This document shows, in pieces, positions 14,978 through 62,255 of a DNA stretch of 64,000 nt. This DNA is from Bacillota bacterium (GTDB taxonomy: Bacteria; Bacillota; Clostridia; Christensenellales; CAG-138). Position 1 is the first letter of the stretch. Each line of letters starts with the position of its first letter. Under the pieces are notes generated by a model. It saw only the letters and a list, made by a program, of their open reading frames with translations, was not told where the DNA came from and made no database searches. Made by a program: the position numbers and the translations under genes. Location of the stretch: positions 2,690 through 66,689 of the forward strand of contig JAEYSE010000022.1 in assembly GCA_023435025.1 (NCBI GenBank), in the 5' to 3' direction.

Positions 14978-15011
14978 GGTAAATCCTTTCCTATCCCAGG
15001 GGGAGGCAACG

Positions 15012-16636: not shown

Positions 16637-16661
16637 GCTTTTCTATTTATATATGAAAGTA

Positions 16662-20762: not shown

Positions 20763-20838
20763 CGAAACTACAAGGCACCTAGTAGCGGGGAGGGAGCCTC
20801 TTCCCTTCCCGCTTAAACTTTACTTCGGGGTGAGAACT

Positions 20839-23342: not shown

Positions 23343-23347
23343 GACTT

Positions 23348-26475: not shown

Positions 26476-26487
26476 GGAGGCGGGCAT

Positions 26488-27003: not shown

Positions 27004-27060
27004 AAACGCGCCCGTTCCTCCCGATGGCGTGGCGCGGGCAGGAATCAGAAAGGAGCGGGC

Positions 27061-28569: not shown

Positions 28570-28578
28570 ATGCAAAAT

Positions 28579-28610
28579 GTCCGCCACTCTTTGATGAATG
28601 GCGGGCGTTT
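28579..28610 (+). terminator. Terminator candidate after the kinase gene
   Basis: GTCCGCCA-N12-TGGCGGGC, an 8-bp stem that includes one G:U pair, followed by GTTTCCTTCTCC. The T-tract is weak. Confidence 0.4.
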
Positions 28611-28660
28611 CCTTCTCCTTATACTTTTCAATGCGTTTTGACTTTTGTTATGAAATATTC

Positions 28661-28690
28661 TTGACATACAAATCCCGGCAGGGCTAAGAT
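28661..28690 (+). promoter_or_regulatory. Promoter candidate for the first SorC regulator
   Basis: TTGACA (28661-28666), an 18-nt spacer, then TAAGAT (28685-28690). It lies about 40 nt upstream of the 28732 start. Confidence 0.4.
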
Positions 28691-28731
28691 GAAAGATGCA
28701 TGGGATTTCCAATAACTTTTGAGGTGGCTCG

Positions 28732-29688: not shown

Positions 29689-29705
29689 TTTCTGTTTTCG
29701 CATAC

Positions 29706-29727
29706 GCCCGGCGGACCGGGCTTTTTT
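29706..29727 (+). terminator. Rho-independent terminator after SorC paralog 1
   Basis: GCCCGG-CGGA-CCGGGC followed by TTTTTT. Confidence 0.7.
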
Positions 29728-29739
29728 ACCGCCGTTGAG

Positions 29740-29755
29740 ATGAACGGTTGTTCAT
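29740..29755. promoter_or_regulatory. Palindromic operator candidate aTGAACggttGTTCAt upstream of SorC paralog 2
   Basis: Perfect 6+6 inverted repeat. The same TGAAC-N4-GTTCA architecture recurs at 30972-30985, and a degenerate copy lies at 19487-19500. Confidence 0.35.
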
Positions 29756-29813
29756 TGCATCCAGGGAATGTGAAAGTAAGTGACGGACAGTATCGGTAAG
29801 TGGAAGGTGCAAA

Positions 29814-30755
29814 ATGGACGAGAGAAGGGACACAAAAATCCTGGTGGCTAAGCTCTACTACACGCAAGGGCTTTCGCAAGAGGAGATCGCAAAGCAGATT
29901 CACCTGTCCCGGCCCACCGTATCGCGGTTGTTAAAAGCCTGTATCGAGGAAGGCATCGTGCAAATCAAAATTGACGATATCTCTTCCCTGGGGCAGGAAC
30001 TTGCAAAGCGCCTTGCGGATACCTACGGCATAAAAAAAGCGATCGTGGTGCCGTCCAGCTCCAGCGCGGAGGCGGATAAGGAACGTGTCGGCCGTGCGGC
30101 GGCAGGATACCTGCAGGAAATACTGCTTCCCAAAATGCTCATAGGTATCTCCTGGGGCTCCACCATACATGCCGTGGTACAGCACCTCGATCCCCCCAGC
30201 TTTATGAAGGCCGACGTCATTCAGCTTCTGGGCGGCACAGGCAGCAAGACAGGCGATACGGATGCAAACTCCATGGCGCTCTCCCTCGCGCGCGCCCTCA
30301 ACGGTGACGCGTATCTTCTGCAAGCGCCATTTATGGTGCAAAGCAAAATACTGCGGGACCTTTTAATGGAAGAACCGCATATCAAGACGCATTTTGAAAA
30401 GCTCAAGCACACGGATATCGCAATCGTCGGGCTGGGCTCCACGAAACCGGCGCTTTCTGCGCAGTTCCGTTCCGGCCATATCAATATGGCGGATTCCGAG
30501 CGGCTGATCGCAGAAGGCGCGGTCGGGGATATCTGCGGAAGGTATGTGGACATCAATGGCCTAAGTTGCCATACGCTATTGAGCGACAAAATGATCGCGG
30601 TAACACTGGACGCGCTCAAACGCATCCCTACGGTTATAGGCGTAGCAGCTGGCGAACAGAAGGCGGATATCATCGTGGGCGCTTTGCGCGGCAGGTATAT
30701 AGACGTGCTGGTTACCGATGAAAAGGCGGCTGTCGGCGTGCTCGGGTACAGATGA
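29814..30755 (+). CDS. SorC/DeoR-type sugar-binding transcriptional regulator (paralog 2)
   Basis: 313 aa. HTH (VAKLYYTQGLSQEEIAKQIHLSRPTVSRLLKACIEEGIV), then GISWGST and QLLGG motifs. Confidence 0.85.
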   Translation: MDERRDTKILVAKLYYTQGLSQEEIAKQIHLSRPTVSRLLKACIEEGIVQIKIDDISSLGQELAKRLADTYGIKKAIVVPSSSSAEADKERVGRAAAGYLQEILLPKMLIGISWGSTIHAVVQHLDPPSFMKADVIQLLGGTGSKTGDTDANSMALSLARALNGDAYLLQAPFMVQSKILRDLLMEEPHIKTHFEKLKHTDIAIVGLGSTKPALSAQFRSGHINMADSERLIAEGAVGDICGRYVDINGLSCHTLLSDKMIAVTLDALKRIPTVIGVAAGEQKADIIVGALRGRYIDVLVTDEKAAVGVLGYR

Positions 30756-30915
30756 GCAAGCGCTTAACGTCCAAAGTATCGGCGTTAAAAATCGCTCCGT
30801 CTTCGCCAAAGACCTCGGACACTACCCTTTCCTAAGAGCGCCCGCAGCGAAGGTGCAGCAGAACACCCCTAGGTAGCAATGCTTAAACAAAACACATAAT
30901 GTCCTTTTAACACAC

Positions 30916-30943
30916 GCGGCTCCATGCGAGCCGCCTTTTTATT
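30916..30943 (+). terminator. Rho-independent terminator after SorC paralog 2
   Basis: GCGGCTC-CATGC-GAGCCGC followed by CTTTTTATT. Confidence 0.75.
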
Positions 30944-30971
30944 GCGCCCATATAGCCTGTCCATATATGCG

Positions 30972-30985
30972 TGAACATATGTTCA
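30972..30985. promoter_or_regulatory. Palindromic operator candidate TGAACatatGTTCA upstream of the BMC operon promoter
   Basis: Perfect 5+5 inverted repeat 17 nt upstream of the -35 candidate. It shares the 11-mer GAACATATGTT with the ABC-operon promoter (19488-19498). Confidence 0.35.
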
Positions 30986-31001
30986 ATATAGTGCCTCTAT
31001 A

Positions 31002-31030
31002 TTGACATGGGTGTATGGACGCAGTATTAT
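31002..31030 (+). promoter_or_regulatory. Sigma-70-type promoter candidate for the BMC operon
   Basis: TTGACA (31002-31007), a 17-nt spacer, then TATTAT (31025-31030). It is followed immediately by the inverted repeat TGACAAATGTCA (31036-31047) and lies about 50 nt upstream of the rpe start. Confidence 0.55.
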
Positions 31031-31079
31031 AAATTTGACAAATGTCATGAACAATGTTAAAGGTCAACAGGAGCACATC

Positions 31080-31742
31080 ATGAAGCTATCTGCGTCCATA
31101 TTGTCGGCGGACCATCTGCGTCTTGGCGCGGAAATAGAGCGGGCGGTTTCCGCCGGGTGCGAGTACCTCCACCTGGACGTCATGGACGGCCACTTCGTTC
31201 CCAATCTTGCCGTAGGTGTTTGCACCGTGGAAGCGCTCAGAGGAGAAACCCGTCTTCGCAAGGACGCGCACCTGATGGTATCCAATCCCGAAGTCCTGAT
31301 CGAGCCCTTCATCAGCGCGGGTGCAGACTCCATCACCATACACGCAGAAAGCACCCCCCACCCTATCCGCCTGCTGCGGGAAATCAAAAGAGCGGGAAAG
31401 CTCGCGGGCCTGGCTCTTACCCCCGAGACCCCGGTGGAAGCGGTGCACACCGCCCTGTTTGAAGCGGATATCGTGCTGCAAATTTCGGTCTGCGTGGGCT
31501 TTGGCGGGCAGAAGTTCATCGTCCCGGTATATGAAAAACTACGGCAACTCCGCGAATACAAGGCGCGTTACGGCCTTAACTTTGAGATACAGGTGGACGG
31601 GGGCATCAACGCCGAAACCGCAGGCATTGCCGCTGAATGCGGCGCCGAAGTCCTGGTGGCCGGCTCCGCGCTGTTCTGCGCGGCGGATATGAGGTCTGCT
31701 GCGAACGCTTTACGTAACCCAACGCCAAACGGCGTATATTGA
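31080..31742 (+). CDS. rpe: Ribulose-phosphate 3-epimerase
   Basis: MKLSASILSADHLRLGAEIERAVSAGCEYLHLDVMDGHFVPNL... is a canonical Rpe N-terminus (S.L.AD, H.DVMDG.FVPN), with VDGGI later. RBS AACAGGAG lies upstream. I rejected the tracked TTG extension from 31002 because it overlaps the promoter. Confidence 0.9.
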   Translation: MKLSASILSADHLRLGAEIERAVSAGCEYLHLDVMDGHFVPNLAVGVCTVEALRGETRLRKDAHLMVSNPEVLIEPFISAGADSITIHAESTPHPIRLLREIKRAGKLAGLALTPETPVEAVHTALFEADIVLQISVCVGFGGQKFIVPVYEKLRQLREYKARYGLNFEIQVDGGINAETAGIAAECGAEVLVAGSALFCAADMRSAANALRNPTPNGVY

Positions 31743-31766
31743 GTAACGGAAATTGGAGGGAATGGT

Positions 31767-32555
31767 ATGGGTCTATATTCCGACAACCTGAAGGATAAGG
31801 TCTGTGTGGTAACGGGCGCGGCAAAAAGCATCGGCTTTGCCATTGCGCAAAAGTATGCCGAGCAGGGCGCAAAAGTGGTGCTTCTGGACATCGATCCGTT
31901 GGTGGAGCGTTCCGCCGAAGAACTGCGGGAAAAGGGGTTCCAGGCGTTCGGCGCCGTGCTCAACATCACGGACAGGGAGGCTGTGTTAAAGACCTTCGAG
32001 CGTATCGTGGAGGAGCACGGCGAGATCTATGCGCTGATCAATAACGCGGGCGCAGTAGACCAGAGGCCCTTTGAAGAAAACGACGAGGCCGTGTTCGAAA
32101 AGATGTTTAAAATCAACGTCTATGGCACCGCCTGGTGCATTCAGGGCGCAATCGAAAGCATGAAGCGGCAGAAGGATGGCCGCATCATCAACTTCTCCTC
32201 CAAATCCGGCAAGACGGGTTCGGCACTGATGGGCCCGTACAGCGCGGCAAAAGGAGCGATCATTTCACTGACTCAGGCGCTCGCGTACGAGTACGCGCCC
32301 TACAACATCAAAATCAACTGTGTTTGCCCCGGCATTACGGACGCCACGGGCGTATGGTCCAGCGTGAGCGCCGGGTATATCGACAACCTGCATCTTCCCC
32401 GGGAAGAGGTCATCAAGAAATTCACGGCAAAGGTGCCTTTGGGAAGGCTTACGGATAAGCAGGATCTGGTGGACTTTGTGTTCTTCCTCACGGTATCCGG
32501 GGATTACTGCACCGGGCAGGCGTTCAACATCACCGGCGGCCGAGAGATGCACTAA
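31767..32555 (+). CDS. Short-chain dehydrogenase/reductase, sorbitol-6-phosphate dehydrogenase (SrlD)-like
   Basis: 262 aa. Shows TGAAKSIG (Rossmann) and YSAAK (catalytic Y-x3-K). [12 protein letters not shown]...[16 protein letters not shown] resembles my recollection of E. coli SrlD (INSKSGKVGS...YCTGQSINVTGGQVMF). Confidence 0.85.
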
Positions 32556-32566
32556 AGGAGGCGCGT

Positions 32567-33406
32567 ATGGATATTGAAAAACTCGTCCGGGAAATCACCG
32601 CGGAGGTTCTAAAAGAAGTGGGCGGTACGGCGGGCACATCCGCGCTGCAGCCCAGAGAATCCAAAAGGGACATGAGCTACGGCAAATACATGGATCATAC
32701 CGTACTCAAGCCCGAAACCATAAGATCTTCCGTGAAGCGCTTCTGCGACGAAGCGAAGGAATGGGGCTTCGCCAGCGTATGCGTCAACCCCACGCACGTG
32801 AAATTCGTGTCCAATGAGCTCAAGGGCACAAGCGTGAAAACCTGCTGCGTCATCGGCTTCCCTCTGGGCGCGAACACGCCCTTTGTCAAGGCCGTGGAGG
32901 CAATGGAAGCCGTCAAGAACGGCGCCAACGAAGTGGACATGGTCATCAACGTTGGCGCGCTCAAGGATAAGGATTACGACCTGGTACTCGCGGATATCAA
33001 GGGCGTGGTGGACGCCGCGCATCCCACAGCAGAGGTCAAGGTCATCATCGAAACCTGCCTGCTGACGGACGAGGAAAAGGTTCGCGCGTGCGAGCTTGCC
33101 AAGCAGGCCGGTGCGGATTTTGTAAAGACGTCCACGGGCTTCGGCTCTGGTGGGGCGACTGTGGAAGACATCCGGCTCATGAAGCGCACCGTGGGGGACA
33201 GCATGCGTGTGAAGGCCTCCACCGGCATCAACGACAGGGCCATCTGCGACGCCATGATCGCTGCAGGCGCCGTGCGCATGGGCACCAGCAAGGGCATTAA
33301 GATCATAATGGGCGAGGAAGAGCAGAAGCAGTGCACGAACTGCGGCAACTGCAAAGCCTCCTGCCCAAGCGGTAACGTGACCATCCAGAAAAAGAGCGAC
33401 TATTAA
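32567..33406 (+). CDS. deoC: Deoxyribose-phosphate aldolase family enzyme with an encapsulation-peptide-like N-terminus and a C-terminal CX2CX2CX3CP tail
   Basis: 279 aa. The DeoC core has [21 protein letters not shown] (Schiff-base Lys context) and VKASTGI. About 35 extra N-terminal residues begin [18 protein letters not shown] (amphipathic helix). About 35 extra C-terminal residues contain [12 protein letters not shown]. Confidence 0.9.
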
Positions 33407-33431
33407 AGAATCAGTAAGGAGAATGTGAAAT

Positions 33432-33707
33432 ATGGATAAGCAGGCATTGGGCATGGTGGAAACAAGGGGTCTGGTCGGCGCGATTGAAGCGGCGGACGCC
33501 ATGGTAAAAGCGGCCAACGTAACGTTGGTTGGCAAAGAACAGATCGGCTCGGGCCTTGTCACCGTTATGGTGCGCGGCGACGTCGGCGCAGTCAAGGCCA
33601 GCGTGGACGCAGGCGCGGCGGCGGCCAAGCGCGTGGGTGAACTCGTAAGCGTGCATGTCATACCCCGGCCCCATCAGGATGTGGAGAACATACTCCCCGC
33701 GAAATGA
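33432..33707 (+). CDS. BMC-H shell protein (PduA/EutM-type hexamer, Pfam BMC domain)
   Basis: 91 aa. [77 protein letters not shown] is a textbook PF00936 sequence. Confidence 0.95.
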
Positions 33708-33732
33708 CCGCGAAGACTTTTAGGAGGGCAAT

Positions 33733-34497
33733 ATGGATCTCGCTTTGAAAGGAAAAACCGTGTTGGTCACGGGCGGCGCGGCCGGCTTAGGCGCGGGCAT
33801 CTGTGAGGTGTTCGCGCAGGAGGGCGCGAACCTGATGGTCAACTATATCGCCAACGAACCGGACGCGAAGCAGTTTGCAAAGACGCTGTACAACCGCTTC
33901 GGCGGCAGGCATATGGCCATTTATGGGGACGTCACCAGCGCGCAGGATGTCGACAATATGATCGACACCGCCGTCAAGGAATACGGCCATCTGGACATTG
34001 TGGTCAACAACGCTGGCATCTGGCCGACTACGCTGGTTGAAAACATGTCCGATGACGAGTGGAACAAGGTCATCAACATCAACCTCACGGGTCCGTTCAT
34101 GGTATCAAAAAGGGCCTGCGTGTATTACAAGAACGCCGGTATCCGCGGGCGCATCGTCAACATTTCTTCAAAATCCGCGTTTGCCGTGAATACTGAAGCG
34201 CACGCGCACTACGTATCCGCCAAAGGCGGGGTTGTGCTGTTAACCAAGGCGCTCGCGCGTGAGTTCTCGCAATACGGCATTATCGTAAACGGCGTGACGC
34301 CGGGCATGGTCAGGACGCCGCTCAACGAGGATAAACTCAGCAACCCGGATATTCTGGCCGCCTATGTTCAGCGCATTCCTTCCGGGCGCGTATCCACCGC
34401 GCAGGAGGTGGGCTATGCGGTAGCGTTTTTAGCCTCCAGCAAGGCGGACTTCATCAACGGAACCTGCGTGGACGTCACCGGCGGCATGCTGATATAA
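33733..34497 (+). CDS. Short-chain dehydrogenase/reductase (FabG/gluconate-5-dehydrogenase-like)
   Basis: 254 aa. Shows TGGAAGLG, NNAG and YVSAK (Y-x3-K), and ends INGTCVDVTGGMLI. Confidence 0.88.
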   Translation: MDLALKGKTVLVTGGAAGLGAGICEVFAQEGANLMVNYIANEPDAKQFAKTLYNRFGGRHMAIYGDVTSAQDVDNMIDTAVKEYGHLDIVVNNAGIWPTTLVENMSDDEWNKVININLTGPFMVSKRACVYYKNAGIRGRIVNISSKSAFAVNTEAHAHYVSAKGGVVLLTKALAREFSQYGIIVNGVTPGMVRTPLNEDKLSNPDILAAYVQRIPSGRVSTAQEVGYAVAFLASSKADFINGTCVDVTGGMLI

Positions 34498-34549
34498 CGA
34501 GGCAATCAAGGTATCTTATTAAAAATCTGAGTTTCAGGAGTACAGGGTT

Positions 34550-35206
34550 ATGTATGAAGCGCAAAAGCGTGAGGTCATAAAAACAGGGCTGGCGATGAAA
34601 GAAACAAGGCTTATCAGCCTTTCCGGCGGAAATGTGAGCCTGCGTTTAGAAAACGGCCACATATTGGTGACTCCCTCCGGCATGATCTACGAGGATATGA
34701 AAGAGGACGACATTCCGGTTCTTGACGCCGACGGCAAGCGTATAGAAGGCACGCTTCGCGAATCCGTGGATACGGTGGCTCTGCTCTACATTTTCGCGCA
34801 TATGCCGCATGTCAACGCGATTCTGCATACCCATCAGCCGTACGCAACCGCTGCGGGGCTCTTAGGCGACGTGCTCCCCGCCGCGGTGACCACGCTCTGT
34901 AACGTTGCCCTAGGGCCGGTCAATGTAGCACCCTACTGCTCCGCTGCAAGTGTTGATATGGGCATACAGACGGTGCAGCACATCGGTGAGCGCCGCGCGG
35001 TCATACTCAAGCACCACGGCGTCATCACGGTGGGCAAGGACTTAAAGGAAGCCCTGTATGCCGCCGTGTATATGGAAGACGCCGCGCTCACCTGGCTCAT
35101 GGCAAAGGCGGCGGGCGTACCTGCGCTGCTGACACCGGAACAAATAACAGACGCCGTAGAGATTCATAAGACCTACGGCCAGCCTAAAAAAGGCCATGGA
35201 GCCTGA
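34550..35206 (+). CDS. Class II aldolase/adducin-family protein (L-fuculose-P aldolase or L-ribulose-5-P 4-epimerase-like)
   Basis: 218 aa. Shows GGNVSLRL, the metal His cluster ILHTHQPYATA, and KHHGVITVGKDLKEA. These are the conserved blocks of FucA/AraD/UlaF-type enzymes. I cannot discriminate aldolase from epimerase by eye. Confidence 0.85.
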   Translation: MYEAQKREVIKTGLAMKETRLISLSGGNVSLRLENGHILVTPSGMIYEDMKEDDIPVLDADGKRIEGTLRESVDTVALLYIFAHMPHVNAILHTHQPYATAAGLLGDVLPAAVTTLCNVALGPVNVAPYCSAASVDMGIQTVQHIGERRAVILKHHGVITVGKDLKEALYAAVYMEDAALTWLMAKAAGVPALLTPEQITDAVEIHKTYGQPKKGHGA

Positions 35207-35855
35207 GGCGCTCCGGCGGCGGGTGACGCTTGCCGTAACCAAACAACTTTTTCTTGCCGGCCAGGGACGGTATGTGCCCGCGGCTGTCTCGGCACGCCAC
35301 CTGCACCTTTGCCCGGCAGACGTTGAAGTGCTTTTTGGCAAGGGATATTCGCTCAACAGGGAACGGGATCTTGTGCAGCCCGGCCAGTACGTCTGCACGG
35401 AGAAAGTCGCGTTTGTGGGGTCCAAGGGCCGCATAGATGGTATCCGCGTGCTTGGCCCGACGCGAAAAGAAACGCAGGTGGAGCTTTCCATGACGGATTG
35501 CTACAAGGTGGGTATCGTCCCATTTGTGCGGATGTCCGGAGAGCTTGCAAACACAACGGGCGGGAAACTCATTGGCCCTGCAGGCGAGGTGACGCTGAAC
35601 AGCGGCGTTATCGTGGCTGCACGGCATCTGCATATGTCAACGGAACAGGCTGCGCTCTATGGGCTAAAAGACGGAGACGTTGTGGACGCCAGGATGTCTG
35701 GTGACAGGGGCGCCGTATTCTTAAATATCCCGGTACGCGCCGGGAGCGCACATGAAATGGAACTGCATCTGGATACCGATGAAGCCAATGCTGCGGGTTT
35801 TCGCGGCGGGCTTGTCGAACTCTTGGAGCATAACGGGGGTCAGTATGGTAGATGA
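35196..35855 (+). CDS. pduL: Phosphate acyltransferase PduL (phosphotransacylase)
   Basis: 219 aa. Two PduL repeats are present (SARHLHLCPADVEVLFG and ARHLHMSTEQAALYG), plus the C-terminal HLDTDEANAAG. About 30 extra N-terminal residues (MEPEALRRRVTLAVTKQLF) could be a targeting helix. The start overlaps the upstream stop by 11 nt. Confidence 0.9.
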   Translation: MEPEALRRRVTLAVTKQLFLAGQGRYVPAAVSARHLHLCPADVEVLFGKGYSLNRERDLVQPGQYVCTEKVAFVGSKGRIDGIRVLGPTRKETQVELSMTDCYKVGIVPFVRMSGELANTTGGKLIGPAGEVTLNSGVIVAARHLHMSTEQAALYGLKDGDVVDARMSGDRGAVFLNIPVRAGSAHEMELHLDTDEANAAGFRGGLVELLEHNGGQYGR

Positions 35856-36492
35856 GGAACTGATTGCACGTATTACGCGGGAAGTGCTCGCCCGCATCCC
35901 GAATGCGCCGCAGCCTAAGACGCTCGTGGTGTTCCCCGGGTATTTGTATGAGCAGGACGCCGTTGCAAAGCATCTGGCTGAAAAGCACGGCAGCGCGGAA
36001 GTGGCGCTGTTTGGGGATGCGGCGGTTCGGCATCCGCAGCTTACCGTGGTTGAAACAGGCACGCAGGCGCAAAGGCAACAGCTTGCAATGCGGCTAAGTG
36101 GCTATGAGAATATCGTGATTGTCACCCCGCCTTTGGAATACCTCTATGTCGCGGCAGAAGGCGATGATTCGCGCCTGGATACGGCGCTGATGCTTCGCCC
36201 GCTGCTGTGGCGCAAAAAAGTGACGCTGCTGTTGGATTATGTGCCGCCCAGGAACAGAAGCGGGTTCTCCCGGCTGACCGACAGCCTGGAGATGCTGCAG
36301 AATATGGGTGCCGCAATTGAAACGCTGCCGAGGCTTTCCAACGCGGGTGGCGAAGCGAAAGAACTGGTCAGTGCCCAGGACATCCGGGACGCCGCGGCAG
36401 GTTCGGGGTATATCCGTCTGGCGCCCCGCGCCATCATCACGCCGCTTGCGGCCGATATGGCGAAGGAACTGGATGTAACAATAGAAAGGTAA
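35845..36492 (+). CDS. Uncharacterised BMC-associated protein with an encapsulation-peptide-like N-terminus
   Basis: 215 aa from the ATG at 35845, overlapping the pduL end by 11 nt. Begins MVDEELIARITREVLARIPN (amphipathic helix followed by a Pro-rich linker). I recognise no catalytic motif. The C-terminus reads IRLAPRAIITPLAADMAKELDVTIE. I rejected the tracked start at 35752 because it would overlap pduL by about 100 nt. Confidence 0.65.
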   Translation: MVDEELIARITREVLARIPNAPQPKTLVVFPGYLYEQDAVAKHLAEKHGSAEVALFGDAAVRHPQLTVVETGTQAQRQQLAMRLSGYENIVIVTPPLEYLYVAAEGDDSRLDTALMLRPLLWRKKVTLLLDYVPPRNRSGFSRLTDSLEMLQNMGAAIETLPRLSNAGGEAKELVSAQDIRDAAAGSGYIRLAPRAIITPLAADMAKELDVTIER

Positions 36493-36502
36493 GGAACACC
36501 TT

Positions 36503-36805
36503 ATGCAGATCGCACGGGTTCGGGGAAGCGTGGTAAGTACAAATAAAACCGAGAAGCTGCATGGGCTAAAACTGCTTGTGGTGGTACCCATTGAGTTGAA
36601 CTCGTTTGAGGAGAAGGGCTCCCCCATCGTCGCCATCGATACCGTTGGCGCGGGGCCGGGAGAGGTCGTAATGCTCTGCGGCGGAAGTTCCTCGCGGCAG
36701 ACGCCGCTTACCGAAAACAAGCCCTCCGATATGGCAATCGTGGCGATCATCGATTCGATAGAGATGAACGGCAATACCATTTTCAGAAAGTATGGCGGCG
36801 ACTGA
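36503..36805 (+). CDS. BMC-P vertex (pentamer) protein, EutN/CcmL family (paralog 1)
   Basis: 100 aa. MQIARVRGSVVSTNKTEKLHGLKLLVV...AIDTVGAGPGEVVMLCGGSSSR...AIVAIIDSIE is a typical PF03319 pattern. Confidence 0.9.
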   Translation: MQIARVRGSVVSTNKTEKLHGLKLLVVVPIELNSFEEKGSPIVAIDTVGAGPGEVVMLCGGSSSRQTPLTENKPSDMAIVAIIDSIEMNGNTIFRKYGGD

Positions 36806-36822
36806 GCGGGAATGAGGAAAAT

Positions 36823-38241
36823 ATGAGCCTGACAGATCAACAGATTCAAAGCATTGTGGAGGACACGCTTAAGAATCTCCGGCGCGTGCATACCGGAGCG
36901 GGCGTGCAGGCGGAAGCGGGCGCAAGCTGGCTTTGCGACACTATGGATGAAGCAGTTTCTCTTGCTGCGGCCGCGCAGAGGGAACTGATGCAAAAAACGC
37001 TCGCGGACCGCGAGCGGTATATAGAAGCCATGCGCCATGCCGCCAAAGAAAATGTGTTGAAGCTTTCGGAGCTGGCGCACCAGGAAACGGGCTATGGCAG
37101 CGTGGAGCATAAGAAGCTCAAGAACCTCCTGGCGATCGAAAAAACGCCGGGCGTTGAGGACTTGCAATCTGACGCTGTTTCCGGGGATTTCGGGCTGACG
37201 TTAATTGAACGGGCGCCTTTTGGCGTTATCGGAGCCATTACGCCCTCCACCAACCCGACTTCCACTGTCATCAACAACAGCATCAGCATGATAGCGGCTG
37301 GAAACGCCGTGGTGTTCAACCCGCATCCTGCGGCTAAACGCGCCTCCACCGAGGCCATGCGAATTCTCAACGAAGCCATCCGCGCGGCGGGCGGGCCAAA
37401 AACACTCATCTGCACTGTGAAGGAGCCCTCTCAGGAAAGCGGCAAAGCTTTAATGGAGCATAAGAATGTTCCGCTGCTGGCAATCACCGGAGGCGAAGCT
37501 GTGGTACGCCTCGCGATGAAGACAGGCAAGAAGGTAATCGCCGCAGGGCCCGGCAACCCACCGGTGATTGTGGACGATACCGCCCTTATCGAAAAAGCAG
37601 CCAAGGATATTGTGGATGGCGCGAGCTTTGACAACAACGTGCTGTGCATCGCCGAAAAAGAGGTATTCGTATATGAAGGTGTGGCGGGCGCGCTGATCAT
37701 GGGCATGCAAAAGCACGGCGCGTATCTTGCCAGTACGGGCGAAACGGAGAAGATCGTCAACACCGTGTTCACGAAAAAGGACGGCAGGTATATTCTCAAC
37801 CGCCAGTTCGTGGGCAAGCCGGCAACGCAAATCCTGCGCGAAAGCGGCATCCGCTTTGACGGAAGCCCGCGCCTTGTAATTGCCGATGTGGATGAATGCC
37901 ATCCATTCGTCACCGCTGAAATGTTGATGCCGGTATTGGGCATTGTGCGCGTCAAGCACGATATCCACGCAGCCATAGAAAAGGCCATTATCGCAGAGGA
38001 CGGCTGCAGGCATACCGCCATCATGCATTCTCAAAACGTCAGCCACCTTTCCATGGCAGCGAAGGCGCTCAATACGACCATATTTGTAAAGAACGCGCCC
38101 TCCTACGCGGGGCTTGGGTTCAACGGCGAGGGGTTTGCCTCCCTTACCATCGCGACGCCGACTGGAGAAGGCATTACCAGCGCGCGGACGTTTACACGCA
38201 GCCGTAGGTGCGTACTATACGGGGATTTTAGGATCGTTTGA
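36823..38241 (+). CDS. CoA-acylating aldehyde dehydrogenase (PduP/EutE-like) with an encapsulation-peptide-like N-terminus
   Basis: 472 aa. Shows GPGNPPVIVDDTA, and DNNVLCIAEKEVFV for the catalytic Cys context as in EutE/PduP. The N-terminus MSLTDQQIQSIVEDTLKNL is amphipathic. Confidence 0.92.
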   Translation: MSLTDQQIQSIVEDTLKNLRRVHTGAGVQAEAGASWLCDTMDEAVSLAAAAQRELMQKTLADRERYIEAMRHAAKENVLKLSELAHQETGYGSVEHKKLKNLLAIEKTPGVEDLQSDAVSGDFGLTLIERAPFGVIGAITPSTNPTSTVINNSISMIAAGNAVVFNPHPAAKRASTEAMRILNEAIRAAGGPKTLICTVKEPSQESGKALMEHKNVPLLAITGGEAVVRLAMKTGKKVIAAGPGNPPVIVDDTALIEKAAKDIVDGASFDNNVLCIAEKEVFVYEGVAGALIMGMQKHGAYLASTGETEKIVNTVFTKKDGRYILNRQFVGKPATQILRESGIRFDGSPRLVIADVDECHPFVTAEMLMPVLGIVRVKHDIHAAIEKAIIAEDGCRHTAIMHSQNVSHLSMAAKALNTTIFVKNAPSYAGLGFNGEGFASLTIATPTGEGITSARTFTRSRRCVLYGDFRIV

Positions 38242-38284
38242 TCCGCAGGCATAAAACAAAAACTTGAAATAAGGAGCGTTTCAA

Positions 38285-38602
38285 ATGGAACTGCAGGCAT
38301 TGGGAATGGTGGAAACAAGGGGTCTCGTCGGCGCGATTGAAGCGGCGGACGCGATGGTAAAAGCGGCGAACGTCTTCCTGGTAGGCAAGGAACAGATCGG
38401 CGCGGGACTGGTCACCGTTATGGTGCGCGGCGATGTTGGCGCGGTAAAGGCTTCAGTTGACGCGGGCGCCGCAGCGGCCAAACGCGTGGGGGAACTAGTA
38501 AGCGTACATGTGATCCCACGCCCTCATGCGGATGTGGAACGAATACTTCCCACCGTGCAAAAGAAGGCGGAAAAGCCGGAGAAAGCTGAAAAGAAGGCAT
38601 AG
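38285..38602 (+). CDS. BMC-H shell protein with a Lys/Glu-rich C-terminal tail
   Basis: 105 aa. The BMC-domain core is nearly identical to the 33432 gene. The tail is [16 protein letters not shown]. Confidence 0.95.
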
Positions 38603-38604
38603 GG

Positions 38605-38868
38605 ATGTATACGGGCGTCGTGGTTGGCTCGGTGGTAAGCACCGTCAAAAACGAAAGCATGAGGGGCATCAAGCTGCTTGTGGTGGAGAAGCGCGAAAAC
38701 GGTAAGCCGGCCGGGCTTATCGTTTCGGCTGACGGCACCAGGCAGGCGGGCAAGGGCGACCATGTCTACCTGATAGGCAGCAAGGAAGCAAGCTTGCTGT
38801 TTGCGGAGCATGGACCGGTGGCGGTGGACTCCGCCATCATCGGGTTTATTGACAGAGTTAACGAATAA
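38605..38868 (+). CDS. BMC-P vertex protein, EutN/CcmL family (paralog 2)
   Basis: 87 aa. MYTGVVVGSVVSTVKNESMRGIKLLVV...GDHVYLIGSKEA...AIIGFIDRV. Confidence 0.88.
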   Translation: MYTGVVVGSVVSTVKNESMRGIKLLVVEKRENGKPAGLIVSADGTRQAGKGDHVYLIGSKEASLLFAEHGPVAVDSAIIGFIDRVNE

Positions 38869-38889
38869 AGAAGGGAGCATTACTGGGAT

Positions 38890-39162
38890 ATGGATAAACA
38901 GGCATTGGGCATGGTGGAAACCAAGGGACTGGTCGGCGCGATAGAGGCGGCGGACGCCATGGTAAAAGCGGCGGATGTGCGGCTGATCGGCAAGGAGCGC
39001 ATCGGCTCAGGGCTGGTCACGGTCATGGTACGCGGCGATGTCGGCGCGGTGAAGGCCAGTGTAGACGCGGGCGCGGCTGCGGCCAAGCGCATAGGGGAGC
39101 TCGTCAGCGTTCATGTCATCCCCCGGCCGCATGAAGATGTGGAGGGCATCCTCCCTCAGTAA
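38890..39162 (+). CDS. BMC-H shell protein (third paralog)
   Basis: 90 aa. [57 protein letters not shown]...VHVIPRPH. Confidence 0.95.
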
Positions 39163-39172
39163 GGAGGCGTCT

Positions 39173-39442
39173 ATGTTGCTCGCCAAAGTAACGGGCACGG
39201 TGGTCTCCACGATAAAACATCCGTCCCACCATGGCCAAAAGCTGCTGATGGTGCAGCCTATTGGCCTTGACGGGGGCGCGATTGGCGCGCGGCACATCGC
39301 GGTTGACGCCGCGGACGCGGGCGTAGGCGATACGGTGCTTGTCAACAACGACGGCGGCGCCGCGATTATGATACTCGAAGACAAGCGCGCAATCATCGAT
39401 ATGACCATCTGCGGCGTGATCGACCATGTGGACGTGGAGTAA
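39173..39442 (+). CDS. BMC-P vertex protein, EutN/CcmL family (paralog 3)
   Basis: 89 aa from the ATG at 39173, with AAGGAGG 6 nt upstream. MLLAKVTGTVVSTIKHPSHHGQKLLMVQP...AVDAADAGVGDTVLV...ICGVIDHVDV. I rejected the tracked upstream extension because it overlaps the preceding BMC-H gene. Confidence 0.88.
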   Translation: MLLAKVTGTVVSTIKHPSHHGQKLLMVQPIGLDGGAIGARHIAVDAADAGVGDTVLVNNDGGAAIMILEDKRAIIDMTICGVIDHVDVE

Positions 39443-39459
39443 GGAAAGGCGGAAAACGA

Positions 39460-40197
39460 GTGAAACCGGAAGCCATAGAGGCAATTATTCAGCAGGTGAC
39501 AAAAGAAGTGATGGCCGCGCTCAGTGTTGAACACAGCGAAGCCTCGGGCGCGGAAGTGGCCTGCACCATAGAGCATAGCGTGTTGAACCCCGACATGACG
39601 GAAGAGCGCATCAGAACGGCCTGCAATGAGGCTGCTGCGTGCGGGCTTGCGAACGTCTGCGTATCGCCGTACTTTGTGCCGCTGGCTGCGGAACTTTTAG
39701 CCGGAAGCGGCGTGAAGGTCTGCACGGTGGTGGGGTTCCCGCACGGCGCGGCATCCCGAAGGGCCAAGGAGGCGGAAGTGCGGGAAGCCATATTAAACGG
39801 CGCTCAGGAGCTGGACGTGGCGATGAACATACTCGCCATTAAAAGCGGCAAAAGCGACGAAGCGTTGCAGGAGCTTAAAGGCCTGGTGGAAATCGCCCGC
39901 GGCCGCGCCGACGTGAAGGCCATATACGAGCAGAGCCTTTATACGGAAGATGAAAAAAGAGAGGCGCTGCGTATCGCCATAGCCTCAGGCGCCGCGTATA
40001 TCAAGATTTCCAATGCTTTAAGCGGCAAAAAGGCGGAAGCGGAAGATGTACGCTTTGTGCGCGGCATTGTAGGCGAAGGCGTCAAAATCAAAATTGATGG
40101 CGGCATCAACGACGCGGCAAAAATCCAAGAGCTGCAGCAGGCAGGCGCGAACAGGTTTGGATGCAGCAAGTCTGTTCAGATCGTATGCGGGGCATAA
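39460..40197 (+). CDS. Divergent DeoC/LacD-family aldolase paralog with an encapsulation-peptide-like N-terminus
   Basis: 245 aa with a GTG start. The N-terminus (M)KPEAIEAIIQQVTKEVMAAL is amphipathic. The DeoC-like core has LDVAMN, VKAIYE, YIKISNAL (Lys retained but the KTSTG context changed) and IKIDGGI. Confidence 0.82.
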   Translation: MKPEAIEAIIQQVTKEVMAALSVEHSEASGAEVACTIEHSVLNPDMTEERIRTACNEAAACGLANVCVSPYFVPLAAELLAGSGVKVCTVVGFPHGAASRRAKEAEVREAILNGAQELDVAMNILAIKSGKSDEALQELKGLVEIARGRADVKAIYEQSLYTEDEKREALRIAIASGAAYIKISNALSGKKAEAEDVRFVRGIVGEGVKIKIDGGINDAAKIQELQQAGANRFGCSKSVQIVCGA

Positions 40198-40224
40198 CGC
40201 TTTTTGCAGGTCCATTCATGAACA

Positions 40225-40268
40225 AAAGACATCCCCAACCGTTGGCTGGGGATGTCTTTTTATTTTTC
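40225..40268. terminator. Bidirectional rho-independent terminator between the BMC operon and the convergent hydrolase gene
   Basis: A 13-bp stem AAAGACATCCCCA/TGGGGATGTCTTT, followed by TTTTATTTTT on the plus strand and preceded by an A-run that serves the minus strand. Confidence 0.75.
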
Positions 40269-41486
40269 GGCACCCGCGATACGGGCAACCTCCTGTACAA
40301 ATCGATCGCTTTCGTTGATCCATGGGCTATGGCCGGAATGTTCAAACCATACAATCTCCTTGTAAGGCGCGCTCATCGAATAAAAATACTCCTCCGCCAG
40401 AGAGACGGGCGCGTTTATATCATGTTTTCCCAGGAATAAATACACCGGCACCTGCAGCGTGCTGTAGTCTTTCTGCAAATCAACGGAGTACAGCTGCGGA
40501 TATACGTGATTGAACGTATTGACGATACCTCTTATAAAGTTGACCGCATCAAAAACACCATACTCTTGCGCGGCCAGGTCGCGCAGGGTATTGTATCCGG
40601 CATTTTGTATTTCGGGGTTGCGCGCCATAACGCCGCTGAGGTAATTAAGGTATGCGGCGCTTTTCCATGTCACGTCTTTTCCGTAATAGGGAGGCGGGCC
40701 GTTCTTCTTGAGCGTTTCCACCAGAGCCTCCTCCCCCGCCTTTTTGGCAAGCTCCATTGTCAGATCATAATCAATGATCTCCGTTTCCAGAAAATCCACC
40801 ATTTGCCCCGTTCCAATAACGGCATGGTACAGCTCGGGATACCGTTCCACGAGGAATATGCCAAGCGCGCTCCCCCAGGACTCTCCAACCAGATATATCT
40901 TTTCCTGCCCGAATTCATTGCACAGGTATTTTGTCAGCGCATGGCCGTCTTCGATATAGGTTTCAGGCGTCAGATCTCGGCGAGATATGGCCGAATAGGA
41001 TTTGCCGGACCCCGGCTGATCCCAGTTCACAACAACAAAATGCTTTTCCAGCTCCTTTAAGTCATGACGGACCGCAGCCATTTGGGTGCCGCCCGGCCCG
41101 CCCGCCAAAAACAGCAGGACCGGATTGTTGACATTATGAGAACGGATGCTGATCCATTCCCTGCGTCCATTTAAATCCACCTGCTTTAGTTCCGCAATGC
41201 TCCCGCTTATCAAGTTTCCCTGATCGTCCCTTATGGCTGGCGTAGACGCGGCCCATTGGGTAAACGCGGTAAACAGAACGCTTGCCGCAAAGCATGAAGC
41301 AAGCAGAATGCCCGTATGTTTTATGCGCATCATCGTCTTACTTTTGTCCGAATGTTTAAACGACCGGGCAAAAAGCACGACGGTGTTGATGATAAGCAAA
41401 AGCACAAGCAGCAGGCAAAGTGTAAGCAGTATTCCCAAAAGTACAATCCTCCACATAGGTTCTCCCCCGCAAATTAATTTGACCAT
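40260..41486 (-). CDS. Alpha/beta hydrolase (prolyl-aminopeptidase/S33-like) with an N-terminal membrane anchor
   Basis: 408 aa with an N-terminal TM helix. Shows LFLAGGPGG, DQPGSGKS and the nucleophile elbow GESWGS. Confidence 0.85.
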   Translation of the reverse strand: MVKLICGGEPMWRIVLLGILLTLCLLLVLLLIINTVVLFARSFKHSDKSKTMMRIKHTGILLASCFAASVLFTAFTQWAASTPAIRDDQGNLISGSIAELKQVDLNGRREWISIRSHNVNNPVLLFLAGGPGGTQMAAVRHDLKELEKHFVVVNWDQPGSGKSYSAISRRDLTPETYIEDGHALTKYLCNEFGQEKIYLVGESWGSALGIFLVERYPELYHAVIGTGQMVDFLETEIIDYDLTMELAKKAGEEALVETLKKNGPPPYYGKDVTWKSAAYLNYLSGVMARNPEIQNAGYNTLRDLAAQEYGVFDAVNFIRGIVNTFNHVYPQLYSVDLQKDYSTLQVPVYLFLGKHDINAPVSLAEEYFYSMSAPYKEIVWFEHSGHSPWINESDRFVQEVARIAGAEK

Positions 41487-41564
41487 CGTTCAATTCCGCA
41501 GTATAACATATAGTTGAACGATGGTCAACTTATGTTATACTAATGAAGAAAAGGTGGTGAGTCT

Positions 41565-42179
41565 ATGGACAAACGAACAAGAATACTTGATGCGCTGCAG
41601 GAATTGCTGCATGAAGGCAGGGCGGGAACGGCGTCCGTCATGGATATCGCCAAAAAAGCGGGTATCGCCAAGGGCGGCATGTATTACTACTTTAAAAGCA
41701 AAGAGGAAGCGTTGGATGCGCTTGCCCGGCGGCAATATGTGAATGTGATACAGACGTGCAAGCAGGCGCTCGCCGGGGCGGAGGGAGACGCCATTACAAA
41801 GCTGAAACTCCTGCTTAACGTGTACCGAAATACGGCGGTGGATTCCACCGTGGATCAATTTTTGCATCAGACGCAAAACGCCGCCATCCATCAAAAATCA
41901 ATGGCGGATATCGTTTATGGGCTTTCCCCGCTTATTGCCGAACTCTTCGAGCAAGGGAGCCGTGAAAAAACATTTGTGTGCGAAAATCCCGCCGCGTACG
42001 CCGAAATTCTGCTTAGTGTGCTGGTTTTCCTGCTTGACCCCGGTATTTTTGAATGGACACACGAGCAAGTAACGGAAAAACTCAAATCCCTGGCGGATTT
42101 TTTGGAAAAGGGGCTTTGCGCAAAAAAGGACAGCTTCTCCTTTTTATACGAGAACTGGACGGGCCAAAGGCTTATGTAG
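41565..42179 (+). CDS. TetR/AcrR family transcriptional regulator
   Basis: 204 aa. The N-terminal HTH is RILDALQELLHEGRAGTASVMDIAKKAGIAKGGMYYYFKSKEE. Confidence 0.9.
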   Translation: MDKRTRILDALQELLHEGRAGTASVMDIAKKAGIAKGGMYYYFKSKEEALDALARRQYVNVIQTCKQALAGAEGDAITKLKLLLNVYRNTAVDSTVDQFLHQTQNAAIHQKSMADIVYGLSPLIAELFEQGSREKTFVCENPAAYAEILLSVLVFLLDPGIFEWTHEQVTEKLKSLADFLEKGLCAKKDSFSFLYENWTGQRLM

Positions 42180-62169: not shown

Positions 62170-62255
62170 AGTACCTCCCGTCAATTCCGCAAGACATACT
62201 GGTTTTAATAGAATCTCCTTATGGCTTTGAAAATGGCTCGTCAGCCTTTGTTCGC

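Follow-up and report, generated by a model that had tools for sequence, protein, structure and literature searches.

A predicted SPU4-type bacterial microcompartment operon with a distinct aldolase subfamily, set in a conserved sugar island of a Christensenellales genome

The microcompartment operon

We analyzed a 64,000-nucleotide stretch of DNA (hereafter, the window; all coordinates refer to it) from a Bacillota bacterium of the order Christensenellales (contig JAEYSE010000022.1 of assembly GCA_023435025.1). Positions 31080–40197 carry an operon that combines bacterial microcompartment (BMC) shell genes with two genes of deoxyribose-phosphate aldolase (DERA), here termed DERA1 and DERA2. 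Judging from gene content and order, the locus is an SPU4-type microcompartment, that is, a member of a catalogued class of sugar phosphate utilizing (SPU) loci, in an undescribed variant. We put at roughly 0.6 the probability that the operon encodes a catabolic metabolosome running forward via DERA. Domain calls on the 15 operon products were made with Pfam and NCBIfam models against family cut-offs. For relatives, one genome per species was scanned with a DERA1 alignment, which returned 80 loci (labelled L plus a number; L001 is the window's own contig), and the window proteins were then mapped onto the open reading frames (ORFs) of those loci to obtain identities and synteny. The closest named relatives were metagenome-assembled genomes (MAGs) of Christensenellaceae, with DERA1 identities of 77–82%.

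The operon consists of 15 co-directional genes on the + strand with intergenic gaps of −11 to 52 nt. This agrees with an earlier reading of the same DNA by a model that ran no database searches (hereafter, the original prediction), and an independent gene call on the identical public contig gave the same 15 genes. The start of the first gene, Rpe, is preceded by an AGGAG ribosome-binding site and, 50 nt upstream, by a candidate sigma-70 promoter, TTGACA-17-TATTAT (31002–31030, + strand), a consensus match at 11 of 12 positions. The original prediction had singled out this promoter, and it is the best promoter-like match in positions 26400–41600 (~15 kb); however, such matches as a class were no commoner than in shuffled sequence (10 found, 10.5 expected), so the promoter is plausible but not proven. 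The proposed strong bidirectional terminator was borne out: a hairpin at about 40224–40260 (−23.8 kcal/mol, z = −4.16) is flanked by an A-run and a T-run, and no shuffled sequence folded as well. A consensus terminator scan did not pick it up, as the apical part is longer than the loop that the scan allows. A further terminator-like hairpin (GCGGCTC...GAGCCGC plus a T-run, 30916–30934) lies between the regulator gene SorC2 and the operon, which fits the operon being a transcription unit of its own.

Pfam confirmed six shell genes where the original prediction had placed them. Three encode BMC-H hexamers (H1, 33432–33707, PF00936 E = 9e-31; H2, 38285–38602, E = 3e-29; H3, 38890–39162, E = 2e-30) and three encode BMC-P pentamers (P1, 36503–36805, PF03319 E = 7e-29; P2, 38605–38868, E = 7e-15; P3, 39173–39442, E = 4e-22); these and all other operon genes lie on the + strand, as do the genes of the upstream island described below. 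The BMC-H proteins are near-identical (H1 shares 91–93% identity with H2 and H3), and the three BMC-P paralogues, which constitute the triplet characteristic of SPU loci, are at most 37% identical to one another. H2 ends in a 15-residue Lys/Glu-rich tail (38552–38602) that has no counterpart in H1 and H3.

The aldehyde dehydrogenase (AldDH; 36823–38241, PF00171) is CoA-acylating and EutE-like (NF011927, 631 bits against a cut-off of 403), begins with an amphipathic helix, and is 65–74% identical to the AldDH of the SPU4 loci L030 and L028. Its translation contains NVLCIAEKE with the putative catalytic Cys; an acylating AldDH is part of the SPU gene set. The PduL-type phosphotransacylase (35196–35855, PF06130 E = 3e-67, domain from residue 30) has an N-terminal extension of ~29 residues, scored 229 bits against NF011652 (phosphate propanoyltransferase; cut-off 209), and contains two RHLH motifs and HLDTDEANAAG. 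The motifs by which the original prediction had recognized both enzymes are present in the translations, in accordance with the Pfam and NCBIfam models.

The eighth gene, g8 (ORF 35845–36492), received no direct Pfam or NCBIfam assignment; its C-terminus gave weak matches only, to TIGR02536 eut_hyp (E = 0.01) and the EutQ N-terminus. A profile built from its few close homologues recovered 260 clusters among 1.8 billion representatives, and among 25 diverse family members 20 matched TIGR02536 eut_hyp and four matched PduM. The AlphaFold2 (AF2) model (pLDDT 81) begins with a helix at residues 4–16, which a low-confidence linker joins to a Rossmann-like core; a small C-terminal domain follows. 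Foldseek of the core returned UbiX, EpiD, PPC decarboxylase, and DmrB (E = 2e-5, TM 0.45–0.59). By family profile and model, g8 is a eut_hyp/PduM-like protein with a predicted flavoprotein (UbiX/EpiD-like) fold, typical of SPU4 loci.

Compared with solved or housekeeping homologues, DERA1, DERA2, and PduL carry ~34, ~30, and ~29 extra N-terminal residues, respectively; in the alignment to solved DERAs, the core begins at about residue 35 in DERA1 and 31 in DERA2. The hydrophobic moment of the N-terminus was highest in AldDH (0.71), followed by DERA1 (0.63) and DERA2 (0.56), with g8 within 0.56–0.71 and PduL at 0.35. The N-termini of DERA1, g8, and DERA2 are alike, and that of AldDH follows the pattern more loosely. 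Encapsulation-peptide-like extensions are thus present on five proteins (DERA1, DERA2, AldDH, PduL, and g8), with a strongly amphipathic helix in four and a weaker one in PduL. Conversely, the domain begins at once in Rpe, in the two short-chain dehydrogenases/reductases (SDR1 and SDR2), in the class II aldolase-family protein, and in the iron-containing alcohol dehydrogenase (Fe-ADH) upstream of the operon. We infer that the five extended proteins form the content of the shell.

Pfam found no B12 enzyme, glycyl-radical enzyme, reactivase, adenosyltransferase, or acetate kinase among the 15 products, so the absences listed in the original prediction hold across the operon. The two DERAs are the only plausible aldehyde-generating cargo enzymes of the locus. 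The original prediction had also called the operon complete, which is arguable: there is no BMC-T and no PduS/PduT, and the sole Fe-ADH lies outside the operon without an extension. A tblastn search of the whole 64 kb found no further shell gene, BMC-T, or PduS. Similar BMC-H paralogues with neither BMC-T nor PduS are consistent with the SPU4 pattern, in which BMC-T occurs only alongside PduS.

Two divergent aldolases

DERA1 (32567–33406, PF01791 E = 8e-20) has an N-terminal encapsulation-peptide-like helix, a KASTGINDR loop, and a CxxCxxCxxxCP tail, and DERA2 (39460–40197, PF01791), the last gene of the operon, is a divergent paralogue with an N-terminal amphipathic helix. Against the deoC equivalog TIGR00126 (cut-off 117 bits), they scored 278 and 198 bits, respectively, and both matched only the deoC model; the two DeoC aldolases of the original prediction therefore stand, and they are encoded together with shell genes. 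Residues 35–249 of DERA1 align to the DERA structure 8qps (269 bits), its core is ~60% identical to the housekeeping DERA of Bacillus, Listeria, and Staphylococcus, and the residues aligned to the catalytic Asp/Lys/Lys of DERA are invariant in the family.

The DERA1-like proteins of the 80 loci form two groups, canonical (n = 62) and T-type (n = 20). The canonical group is marked by KTSTGFS..GGAT and KASGGV(R/K) and holds the housekeeping Bacillus, Listeria, and Staphylococcus enzymes as well as the extension-bearing DERA1 of L030-type SPU4 loci. The T-type group, to which the window's DERA1 belongs, also includes proteins from other Christensenellaceae, Treponema, Chloroflexi, and an Erysipelotrichaceae MAG; its loop reads KASTGIN instead of KASGGVR, with Thr replacing the first Gly. 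The discriminating residues (DERA1 numbering) are P153, G193, K206, T219, I221, and N222, of which T219, I221, and N222 align with G204, V206, and R207 of E. coli DERA, and G193 directly follows the KTSTG motif. We take the E. coli loops with G204/V206/R207 and KTSTG to be those that bind the substrate phosphate.

Besides the window, T-type DERA1 was found in L002–L009, L011–L017, L019, L020, L026, and L040, with shell genes present or absent. It shares the locus with an SDR1 orthologue (63–84% identity) in 12 related loci (the window's own contig not counted). It often neighbors SDRs of the sorbitol dehydrogenase kind, ROK or FGGY kinases, or a phosphotransferase system (PTS) of the mannose type. 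Its partners elsewhere include an ROK kinase (L013 and L016) and, in L015, a mannose-family PTS, a medium-chain dehydrogenase/reductase (MDR), an Rpe-like gene, and an Fe-ADH. Even the T-type loci without shell genes (L012, L013, L015, L016, and L040) still pair DERA1 with SDR1/SDR2, other dehydrogenases, kinases, or a PTS. In L040, a contig labelled as an Anaeromyxobacter sp. MAG, SDR1, the T-type DERA, and the ATP-binding cassette (ABC) transporter are 63–70% identical to those of the window; such closeness is unexpected for Myxococcota and could reflect horizontal transfer or a mis-binned contig.

DERA2 retains the residues aligned to the DERA catalytic Asp/Lys/Lys, and three of its motifs are changed: KTSTGF to KISNAL, KASGG to KIDGG, and GFPLG to GFPHG. 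These changes are kept in the orthologues of eight loci (L006, L007, L008, L011, L024, L027, L028, and L030), which read KISNAL or KIQNVL near the Schiff-base lysine, and the orthologues always close an SPU4 shell operon. From this conservation, DERA2 looks like a working enzyme of different specificity, not a decayed copy.

The tail of DERA1 (residues 256–267; 33332–33367) reads as a ferredoxin-like CxxCGxCxxxCPxG followed by a terminal Tyr. It is kept in 24 of 26 aligned family members and was found in canonical SPU4 DERA1 too, and residues 247–271 gave weak Fer4/4Fe-4S Pfam matches. The SPU paper of Dwyer 2024 does not mention a Cys-rich tail of DERA. Such a motif may be a site for an iron-sulfur cluster or for docking of PduS/PduT-type partners.

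Assignment to SPU4

SPU loci are defined by DERA (PF01791), an RpiB-like protein (PF02502; a signature enzyme according to Sutter 2021), AldDH, and a BMC-P triplet (Axen 2014; Sutter 2021; Dwyer 2024, PMC11585597). SPU4 loci belong to Firmicutes, mostly Bacillales/Clostridiales, and encode a phosphotransacylase (PTAC), triose-phosphate isomerase (TPI), a eut_hyp-like protein with an encapsulation peptide, a BMC-P triplet, two similar BMC-H, no consistent BMC-T, and, in 14 of 33 loci, a PduS/PduT pair (Sutter 2021 Supplementary Data 2). The eut_hyp (TIGR02536)-type flavoprotein-related protein of SPU4 has an N-terminal extension of 30–40 aa. Catalogued members include Catabacter, Clostridiales R-7, and Anaerotruncus, and a 181-aa BMC-T is listed for the SPU4 main locus of Catabacter ABBA15k.

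In L030, from Christensenella hongkongensis, the gene order is PduL-g8-P1-AldDH-PduS-BMC-T(181 aa)-H-P2-H-P3-DERA2, at 49–65% identity to the window, and the locus continues with SorC, an MDR dehydrogenase, DERA1, an FGGY kinase, TPI, and an ABC transporter. We assume that Catabacter ABBA15k is the same organism as C. hongkongensis. The core order in the window is that of L030 minus PduS and BMC-T, and the window locus is therefore SPU4-type; L028 shares 63–88% identity with the window proteins. The SPU placement made in the original prediction is thereby upheld by both content and order. The extended PduL, the eut_hyp-type g8, the similar BMC-H, and the synteny with L030 point to SPU4 in particular, and the extension on DERA is as seen in SPU loci. 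Two usual components were not found: an RpiB-like protein (PF02502) is absent from the 15 products (Pfam) and from the 64 kb (tblastn with an approximate E. coli RpiB query), and TPI (PF00121), present in L030, is absent from the operon and the 64-kb window. According to the SPU literature, 11 of the 29 curated SPU4 loci likewise do not encode ribose-5-phosphate isomerase (RPI), and neither does SPU5.

The statement in the original prediction that SPU loci are known from bioinformatics only is outdated, since SPU6 enzymes were purified and assayed in 2024 and archaeal shells followed in 2025. The SPU6 DERA was soluble only without its N-terminal extension and was active on deoxyribose-5-phosphate (Dwyer, Sutter, Kerfeld 2024, PMC11585597), with a reported Km value of 0.104, and its RPI partner was inactive on ribose-5-phosphate and formed a complex with DERA (PMC11585597). 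A 2025 preprint describes SPU-type loci of Hodarchaeales and the self-assembly of their shells. In the literature, we found no in vivo substrate or native organelle for any SPU type, no work on SPU4 enzymes, and no link of SPU to pentitols, xylulose, or Christensenella.

Regulators and a probable DeoR-like operator

Two SorC/DeoR-type regulator genes precede the operon: SorC1 (28732–29688, PF04198; 128 bits to SorC 2w48 and 125 to B. subtilis DeoR 8r7y) and SorC2 (29814–30755, PF04198; 155 bits to Klebsiella SorC 2w48 and 152 to B. subtilis DeoR 8r7y). The recognition segment of SorC2, SRPTVSRLL, is identical to that of B. subtilis DeoR. A perfect palindrome, TGAACATATGTTCA (30972–30985), lies 17 nt upstream of the −35 hexamer as a candidate operator. 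It is the sole zero-mismatch site in the 64 kb, and a one-mismatch copy is located at 29741, upstream of the SorC2 start. Sites with 0–1 mismatches occur in the SorC2–Rpe intergenic region of L007, L008, L082, L086, L084, and L085, and sites with 0–2 mismatches upstream of the corresponding operon in L002, L003, L009, L010, and L012; the operator is thus kept in every relative examined. Its halves agree with those of the B. subtilis DeoR operator, ATTGAACAAAATTTCAAT...TGTTCAA (TTGAACA/TGTTCAA) (PMC11229326), and it also matches sites that precede dra in ten loci of Bacillus, Listeria, and Clostridium. In this respect, the arrangement is that of a B. subtilis-type DeoR regulon, with a DeoR operator upstream of an aldolase operon. 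SorC2 is likely the repressor of the microcompartment operon, as predicted from its recognition segment and this operator.

More DeoR-half-site-like elements, TGACAAATGTCA and TGAACAATGTTAAA, lie at 31034–31060 between the −10 hexamer and the Rpe start, and they may constitute a second half-operator for a tetrameric SorC-type repressor. A third operator at 19487, upstream of the transporter, was rejected: it has three mismatches, and ~25 such sites in the window correspond to chance level, so co-regulation of the transporter module with the operon comes down to conserved synteny.

B. subtilis DeoR binds deoxyribose-5-phosphate covalently (PMC11229326). At the position aligned to the Lys of the DeoR QLKGG motif, SorC2 has Leu and SorC1 has Ile. 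This Lys (Lys141) is presumably the residue that forms the covalent bond in B. subtilis DeoR; the effector in the window is therefore probably not deoxyribose-5-phosphate sensed as in DeoR. The DNA side of the switch appears DeoR-like, and effector sensing probably differs.

The operator brings in the published model for all SPU subtypes, a DNA-scavenging organelle. Its sole substrate would be deoxyribose-5-phosphate, derived from deoxynucleosides via a phosphorylase and a mutase encoded elsewhere, and the SDRs, Rpe, the aldolase/epimerase-family gene, and the upstream transporter/kinase module would form a separate pentitol/pentulose pathway with only location and operon in common with the organelle. 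Such a role fits the operator, shared with the deoxyribose-5-phosphate-inducible dra operon of B. subtilis, and a DERA1 core so close to housekeeping enzymes; moreover, the Chloroflexi locus L013 has a PNP_UDP_1 phosphorylase two genes from its T-type DERA. However, a single operon intersperses the genes of SDR1, SDR2, and Rpe with those of DERA1 and a shell protein, across genomes at 50–80% identity, and T-type DERA travels with SDR1 and sugar kinases even where there is no shell. The Leu/Ile at the presumed effector-binding position of both regulators and the lack of a nucleoside phosphorylase in the window also speak against it. We therefore consider DNA scavenging as the sole role to be rather unlikely.

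Accessory enzymes and the upstream sugar island

The remaining operon genes encode Rpe, a ribulose-phosphate 3-epimerase (31080–31742, PF00834 E = 9e-64; TIGR01163, 236 bits against 213), the polyol 2-dehydrogenase-like SDR1 (31767–32555, PF00106), the glucose 1-dehydrogenase-like SDR2 (33733–34497, PF13561), and a class II aldolase/epimerase-family protein (34550–35206, PF00596 E = 2e-41); Pfam assigned all four as the original prediction had named them. The closest structures of SDR1 were the SDR-type sorbitol/L-iditol dehydrogenases 1k2w and 4e6p and the xylitol dehydrogenase 1zem, and those of SDR2 were the Bacillus glucose 1-dehydrogenases 3aus and 1gco (E = 2e-55).

The class II protein could itself be the source of the aldehyde, by splitting a ketose-1-phosphate into dihydroxyacetone phosphate and lactaldehyde, glycolaldehyde, or acetaldehyde in a PVM-like manner, with the DERAs as accessory enzymes. 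Class II aldolases serve as the signature enzyme in PVM, PVM-like, and SPU-like loci, and the closest structures of the window protein, the fuculose-phosphate aldolases 6btd and 4c24, outscored AraD (1k0w). Nevertheless, its top NCBIfam match was the L-ribulose-5-phosphate 4-epimerase subfamily (166 bits, under the cut-off), and it has neither an N- nor a C-terminal extension. In the alignment, it has Asp at the FucA Glu position and no Tyr at the FucA Tyr113 position, where we take Glu and Tyr113 to be catalytic in the aldolase. In relatives, the gene lies outside the microcompartment operon and adjoins a UlaE-like epimerase gene. A PVM or PVM-like assignment was rejected on the extension, the FucA residues, and this gene location, and we regard aldehyde formation by the class II protein as highly improbable. 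We also considered a dehydratase/reductase route from pentulose-1-phosphate to 2-deoxy-pentose-5-phosphate, with the class II protein as an MtnB-like dehydratase acting together with the SDRs and Fe-ADH. This is chemically possible but finds no support, because the class II gene lies outside the conserved T-type DERA core and the other epimerases act on 5-phosphates.

Upstream of the operon, a monosaccharide/polyol-type ABC transporter of the ribose-transporter kind (CUT2-like; 19659–24376) comprises a binding protein (PF13407) with weak likeness to ribose-binding proteins, a double ATPase (PF00005 x2), and two permeases (PF02653 x2). It is kept upstream of the same island in L086 and is 69–70% identical to the transporter beside SDR1-DERA1 in L040. 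It is followed by an L-ribulose-5-phosphate 3-epimerase (UlaE/SgbU-like; 24426–25280; NF009688, 346 against 317 bits; TIGR00542, 335 against 272) and by the Fe-ADH (25315–26475; PF00465 and PF25137, residues 9–386), for which every specific NCBIfam model scored under its cut-off. Next come an AllA/DUF4867-like cupin (26488–27003; PF04115 E = 3.5e-9; AF2 pLDDT 94) and an FGGY-family sugar kinase (27061–28569; PF00370 and PF02782). Foldseek matched the cupin to ureidoglycolate lyases (TM 0.77) and then to the DUF4867 structure 9gyz, and its gene, directly upstream of that of the kinase, is kept in all island relatives. A 2025 study (PMC11968277) connected DUF4867 proteins with FGGY kinases and with the metabolism of ketoses, whose ring-opening or mutarotation it proposed as their role, but it could not assign a function. 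The top models of the kinase, XylB and LsrK, were both under cut-off, and its closest structure was LsrK 5ya0, followed by xylulokinases.

These genes, the two regulators, and the operon recur as a whole in L007, L008, L082, and L086 (Christensenellaceae-like), that is, in at least five genomes including the window, and in part in L002, L003, L009, L010, and L026, with identities of 50–84%. PduS/BMC-T is present in those relatives whose contigs extend that far (L007, L008, and L082). By this synteny, the operon lies at the downstream end of a larger conserved island that also encodes a transporter, a kinase, epimerases, and two SorC/DeoR regulators; the original prediction overlooked this wider setting. 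Taken at face value, the genes outside the predicted cargo would import a pentitol or pentose, oxidize or reduce it to a ketopentose, phosphorylate this, and interconvert L- and D-ketopentose-5-phosphates.

In L084 (8351–13596) and L085 (4595–9839), a block of Rpe, SDR1, DERA1, a single BMC-H, SDR2, MDR, and cupin genes forms a locus of its own, and the 10 kb around it contain no other shell gene; its DERA1 has the N-terminal helix and the Cys tail. The block appears to be a satellite of a microcompartment whose main locus lies elsewhere. Because it stands alone there, the 15-gene operon of the window resembles a fusion of this block with an SPU4 core operon. Two URO-D-like genes, a 2-hydroxyacid dehydrogenase gene, and two FGGY kinase genes were seen near the block in L084/L085.

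An autoinducer-2 (Lsr) system was suggested by the transporter type, the LsrK-like kinase, LsrR-like regulators, a PF01791 protein, and an Rpe homologue. We rejected it because both PF01791 proteins matched only deoC, with ~60% identity of the DERA1 core to housekeeping DERA, and Lsr models scored far under their cut-offs; neither is accordingly an LsrF-type thiolase, and no LsrG-type family was found among the proteins scanned in and next to the operon.

In a reductive, condensing organelle, AldDH would reduce acetyl-CoA to acetaldehyde as an NADH sink, and DERA would condense acetaldehyde with glyceraldehyde-3-phosphate to deoxyribose-5-phosphate. The equilibrium of DERA favors condensation, SDR1 and Fe-ADH would fit a need for redox balancing, and co-regulation with polyol catabolism would be sensible because polyols yield extra NADH; part of the literature carries such a model for Atribacteria (Nobu et al. 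2016, via PMC6281690). However, an N-terminally extended PduL is a hallmark of the oxidative, ATP-yielding direction, and deoxyribose-5-phosphate is no terminal electron sink. Because the Fe-ADH lacks an extension, acetaldehyde would have to leave the shell for ethanol to form, and a mere buffering role would hardly account for two conserved, targeted DERA paralogues. The reductive direction is improbable in our view.

The chromosomal neighbors of the island are rpoC and rpoB, a PBP2-like transpeptidase gene, mreC, and two MreB paralogues 33 kb apart (3049–10346, 12338–17678, and 51062–52102); this context places the island on the chromosome and not on a mobile element. Genes of a PfkB-family sugar kinase and a LacI-family regulator lie on the minus strand toward the window's end (61282–63353).

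Proposed function

In the catabolic metabolosome that we favor, a 2-deoxy-sugar phosphate (deoxyribose-5-phosphate or a close analogue) would enter the shell, and DERA would split it into acetaldehyde and a triose phosphate. AldDH would trap the acetaldehyde as acetyl-CoA, yielding NADH, and PduL would turn acetyl-CoA into acetyl-phosphate, recycling CoA; ATP would be formed outside the shell by an acetate kinase encoded elsewhere. The chemistry in the original prediction, from retro-aldol cleavage through acetaldehyde and acyl-CoA to acyl-phosphate, agrees with the SPU model in the literature. At TGAACATATGTTCA, the operon would be repressed by the neighboring SorC regulator, which is DeoR-like, and a sugar phosphate would induce it. 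The operon would cooperate with the upstream ABC importer, cupin, FGGY kinase, and L-ribulose-5-phosphate 3-epimerase, and the Rpe, SDRs, and aldolase/epimerase-family protein within the operon would belong with this upstream module. Combined, the modules would resemble a route from an imported pentitol or pentose via ketopentose-5-phosphates. The domain identities, the retained catalytic-aligned residues, the N-terminal extensions, and the SPU4 synteny are features of the genes themselves; that these proteins are encapsulated, which way flux runs, which aldehyde is released, and from what substrate are predictions built on them.

Several observations weigh against this scheme. We know of no reaction that takes ketopentose-5-phosphates to a 2-deoxy-aldose phosphate, so the proposed scheme has a gap where the sugar module should lead to the aldolases. 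Deoxyribose-5-phosphate is classically supplied by a nucleoside phosphorylase together with phosphopentomutase; tblastn found no nucleoside phosphorylase in the 64 kb (phosphopentomutase was not searched for), so the classical source is not encoded nearby. Both DERAs depart from housekeeping DERA in or near the phosphate-site motifs; deoxyribose-5-phosphate is therefore no safe assumption for this variant, and the substrate may be another one. The effector of SorC1 and SorC2 probably differs from that of DeoR, and the palindrome appears to tie together only SorC2 and the microcompartment operon, not the transporter. Finally, no NAD+-recycling enzyme with an encapsulation peptide is evident in the locus, g8 and the Cys-rich tail of DERA1 being possible exceptions.

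Alternatively, the organelle might be no DNA scavenger but the last stage in the catabolism of an imported pentitol, pentose, or other sugar. T-type DERA, with a remodeled phosphate pocket and possibly aided by DERA2, would then cleave a sugar phosphate supplied by the co-inherited SDRs, kinase, and epimerases, through an undescribed split of C5 into C2 and C3 or by a route releasing some other aldehyde than acetaldehyde, and the DERA1 tail and g8 would possibly provide redox recycling in place of PduS/PduT. We offer this only tentatively and think it less probable than cleavage of a 2-deoxy-sugar phosphate. If true, a C5 to C2 + C3 split would be equivalent in outcome to the phosphoketolase reaction.

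The SPU4 type itself and the DERA-based chemistry, as the published SPU model, were already known. We did not find described in the literature the wiring of such an operon to sugar/polyol genes under a DeoR-like operator, the distinct DERA subfamily, or a Cys-rich tail on a cargo aldolase. SPU loci are among the most widespread microcompartments, occurring in 26 phyla, and the role of their accessory enzymes is an acknowledged puzzle. The present locus and its relatives give a handle on the SPU substrate, with an operator/repressor pair, an importer, a kinase, two dehydrogenases, and a recognizable aldolase subfamily, all of them open to experiment in gut Christensenellaceae that can be cultured. 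Should imported sugars or sugar alcohols, and not DNA, feed the organelle, the use of SPU as a marker of detritus or DNA recycling would need revision, at least in Clostridia, and the new aldolase specificity would be of biotechnological interest. If it merely cleaves deoxyribose-5-phosphate, the locus is an ordinary new member of a catalogued type.

Comparison with known systems

Among the known systems, the C. hongkongensis-type SPU4 locus is similar in its occurrence in Clostridia, its AldDH, PduL-type PTAC, extended DERA, eut_hyp-like protein, BMC-P triplet, and near-identical BMC-H, with the gene order shared at 49–74% identity. Unlike the catalogued SPU4, the window contains no RpiB-like gene, TPI, or PduS/PduT pair, and its operon includes Rpe, two SDRs, and a class II aldolase-family gene. 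Its DERA1 is T-type (KASTGIN), whereas that of L030-type SPU4 loci is canonical (KASGGV(K/R)).

SPU6 of Chloroflexi (PMC11585597) shares the N-terminally extended DERA signature, AldDH, the BMC-P triplet, and the proposed conversion of deoxyribose-5-phosphate via acetaldehyde to acetyl-CoA. It differs by its BMC-T(dp), by an RPI partner complexed with DERA, by an AldDH whose encapsulation peptide is C-terminal, and, in the operon studied, by a GntR-type regulator, whereas the window has PduL, no BMC-T, and SorC/DeoR-type regulators. A PTAC has been reported only for SPU1, SPU4, and SPU7 (PMC11585597).

The B. subtilis dra-nupC-pdp operon with DeoR likewise has a DERA gene downstream of a SorC-family regulator, with near-identical half-sites (TGAACA...TGTTCA) and an identical recognition segment. 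In contrast, the window has no nucleoside transporter or phosphorylase, the QLKGG Lys position is Leu/Ile, and the regulated operon encodes an organelle together with dehydrogenases and an epimerase.

Lastly, the E. coli yiaK-S/ula route (LyxK, SgbU/UlaE, and SgbE/UlaF) resembles the island in its FGGY kinase, its L-ribulose-5-phosphate 3-epimerase (above cut-off in the window), and the additional Rpe, and in the relatives of the window a class II aldolase-family gene likewise lies beside a UlaE-like epimerase gene. Unlike that route, the window has no 3-keto-L-gulonate-6-phosphate decarboxylase and an insecure 4-epimerase identity, its transporter is of the ABC type and not TRAP or PTS, and its sugar genes are fused to a microcompartment operon.

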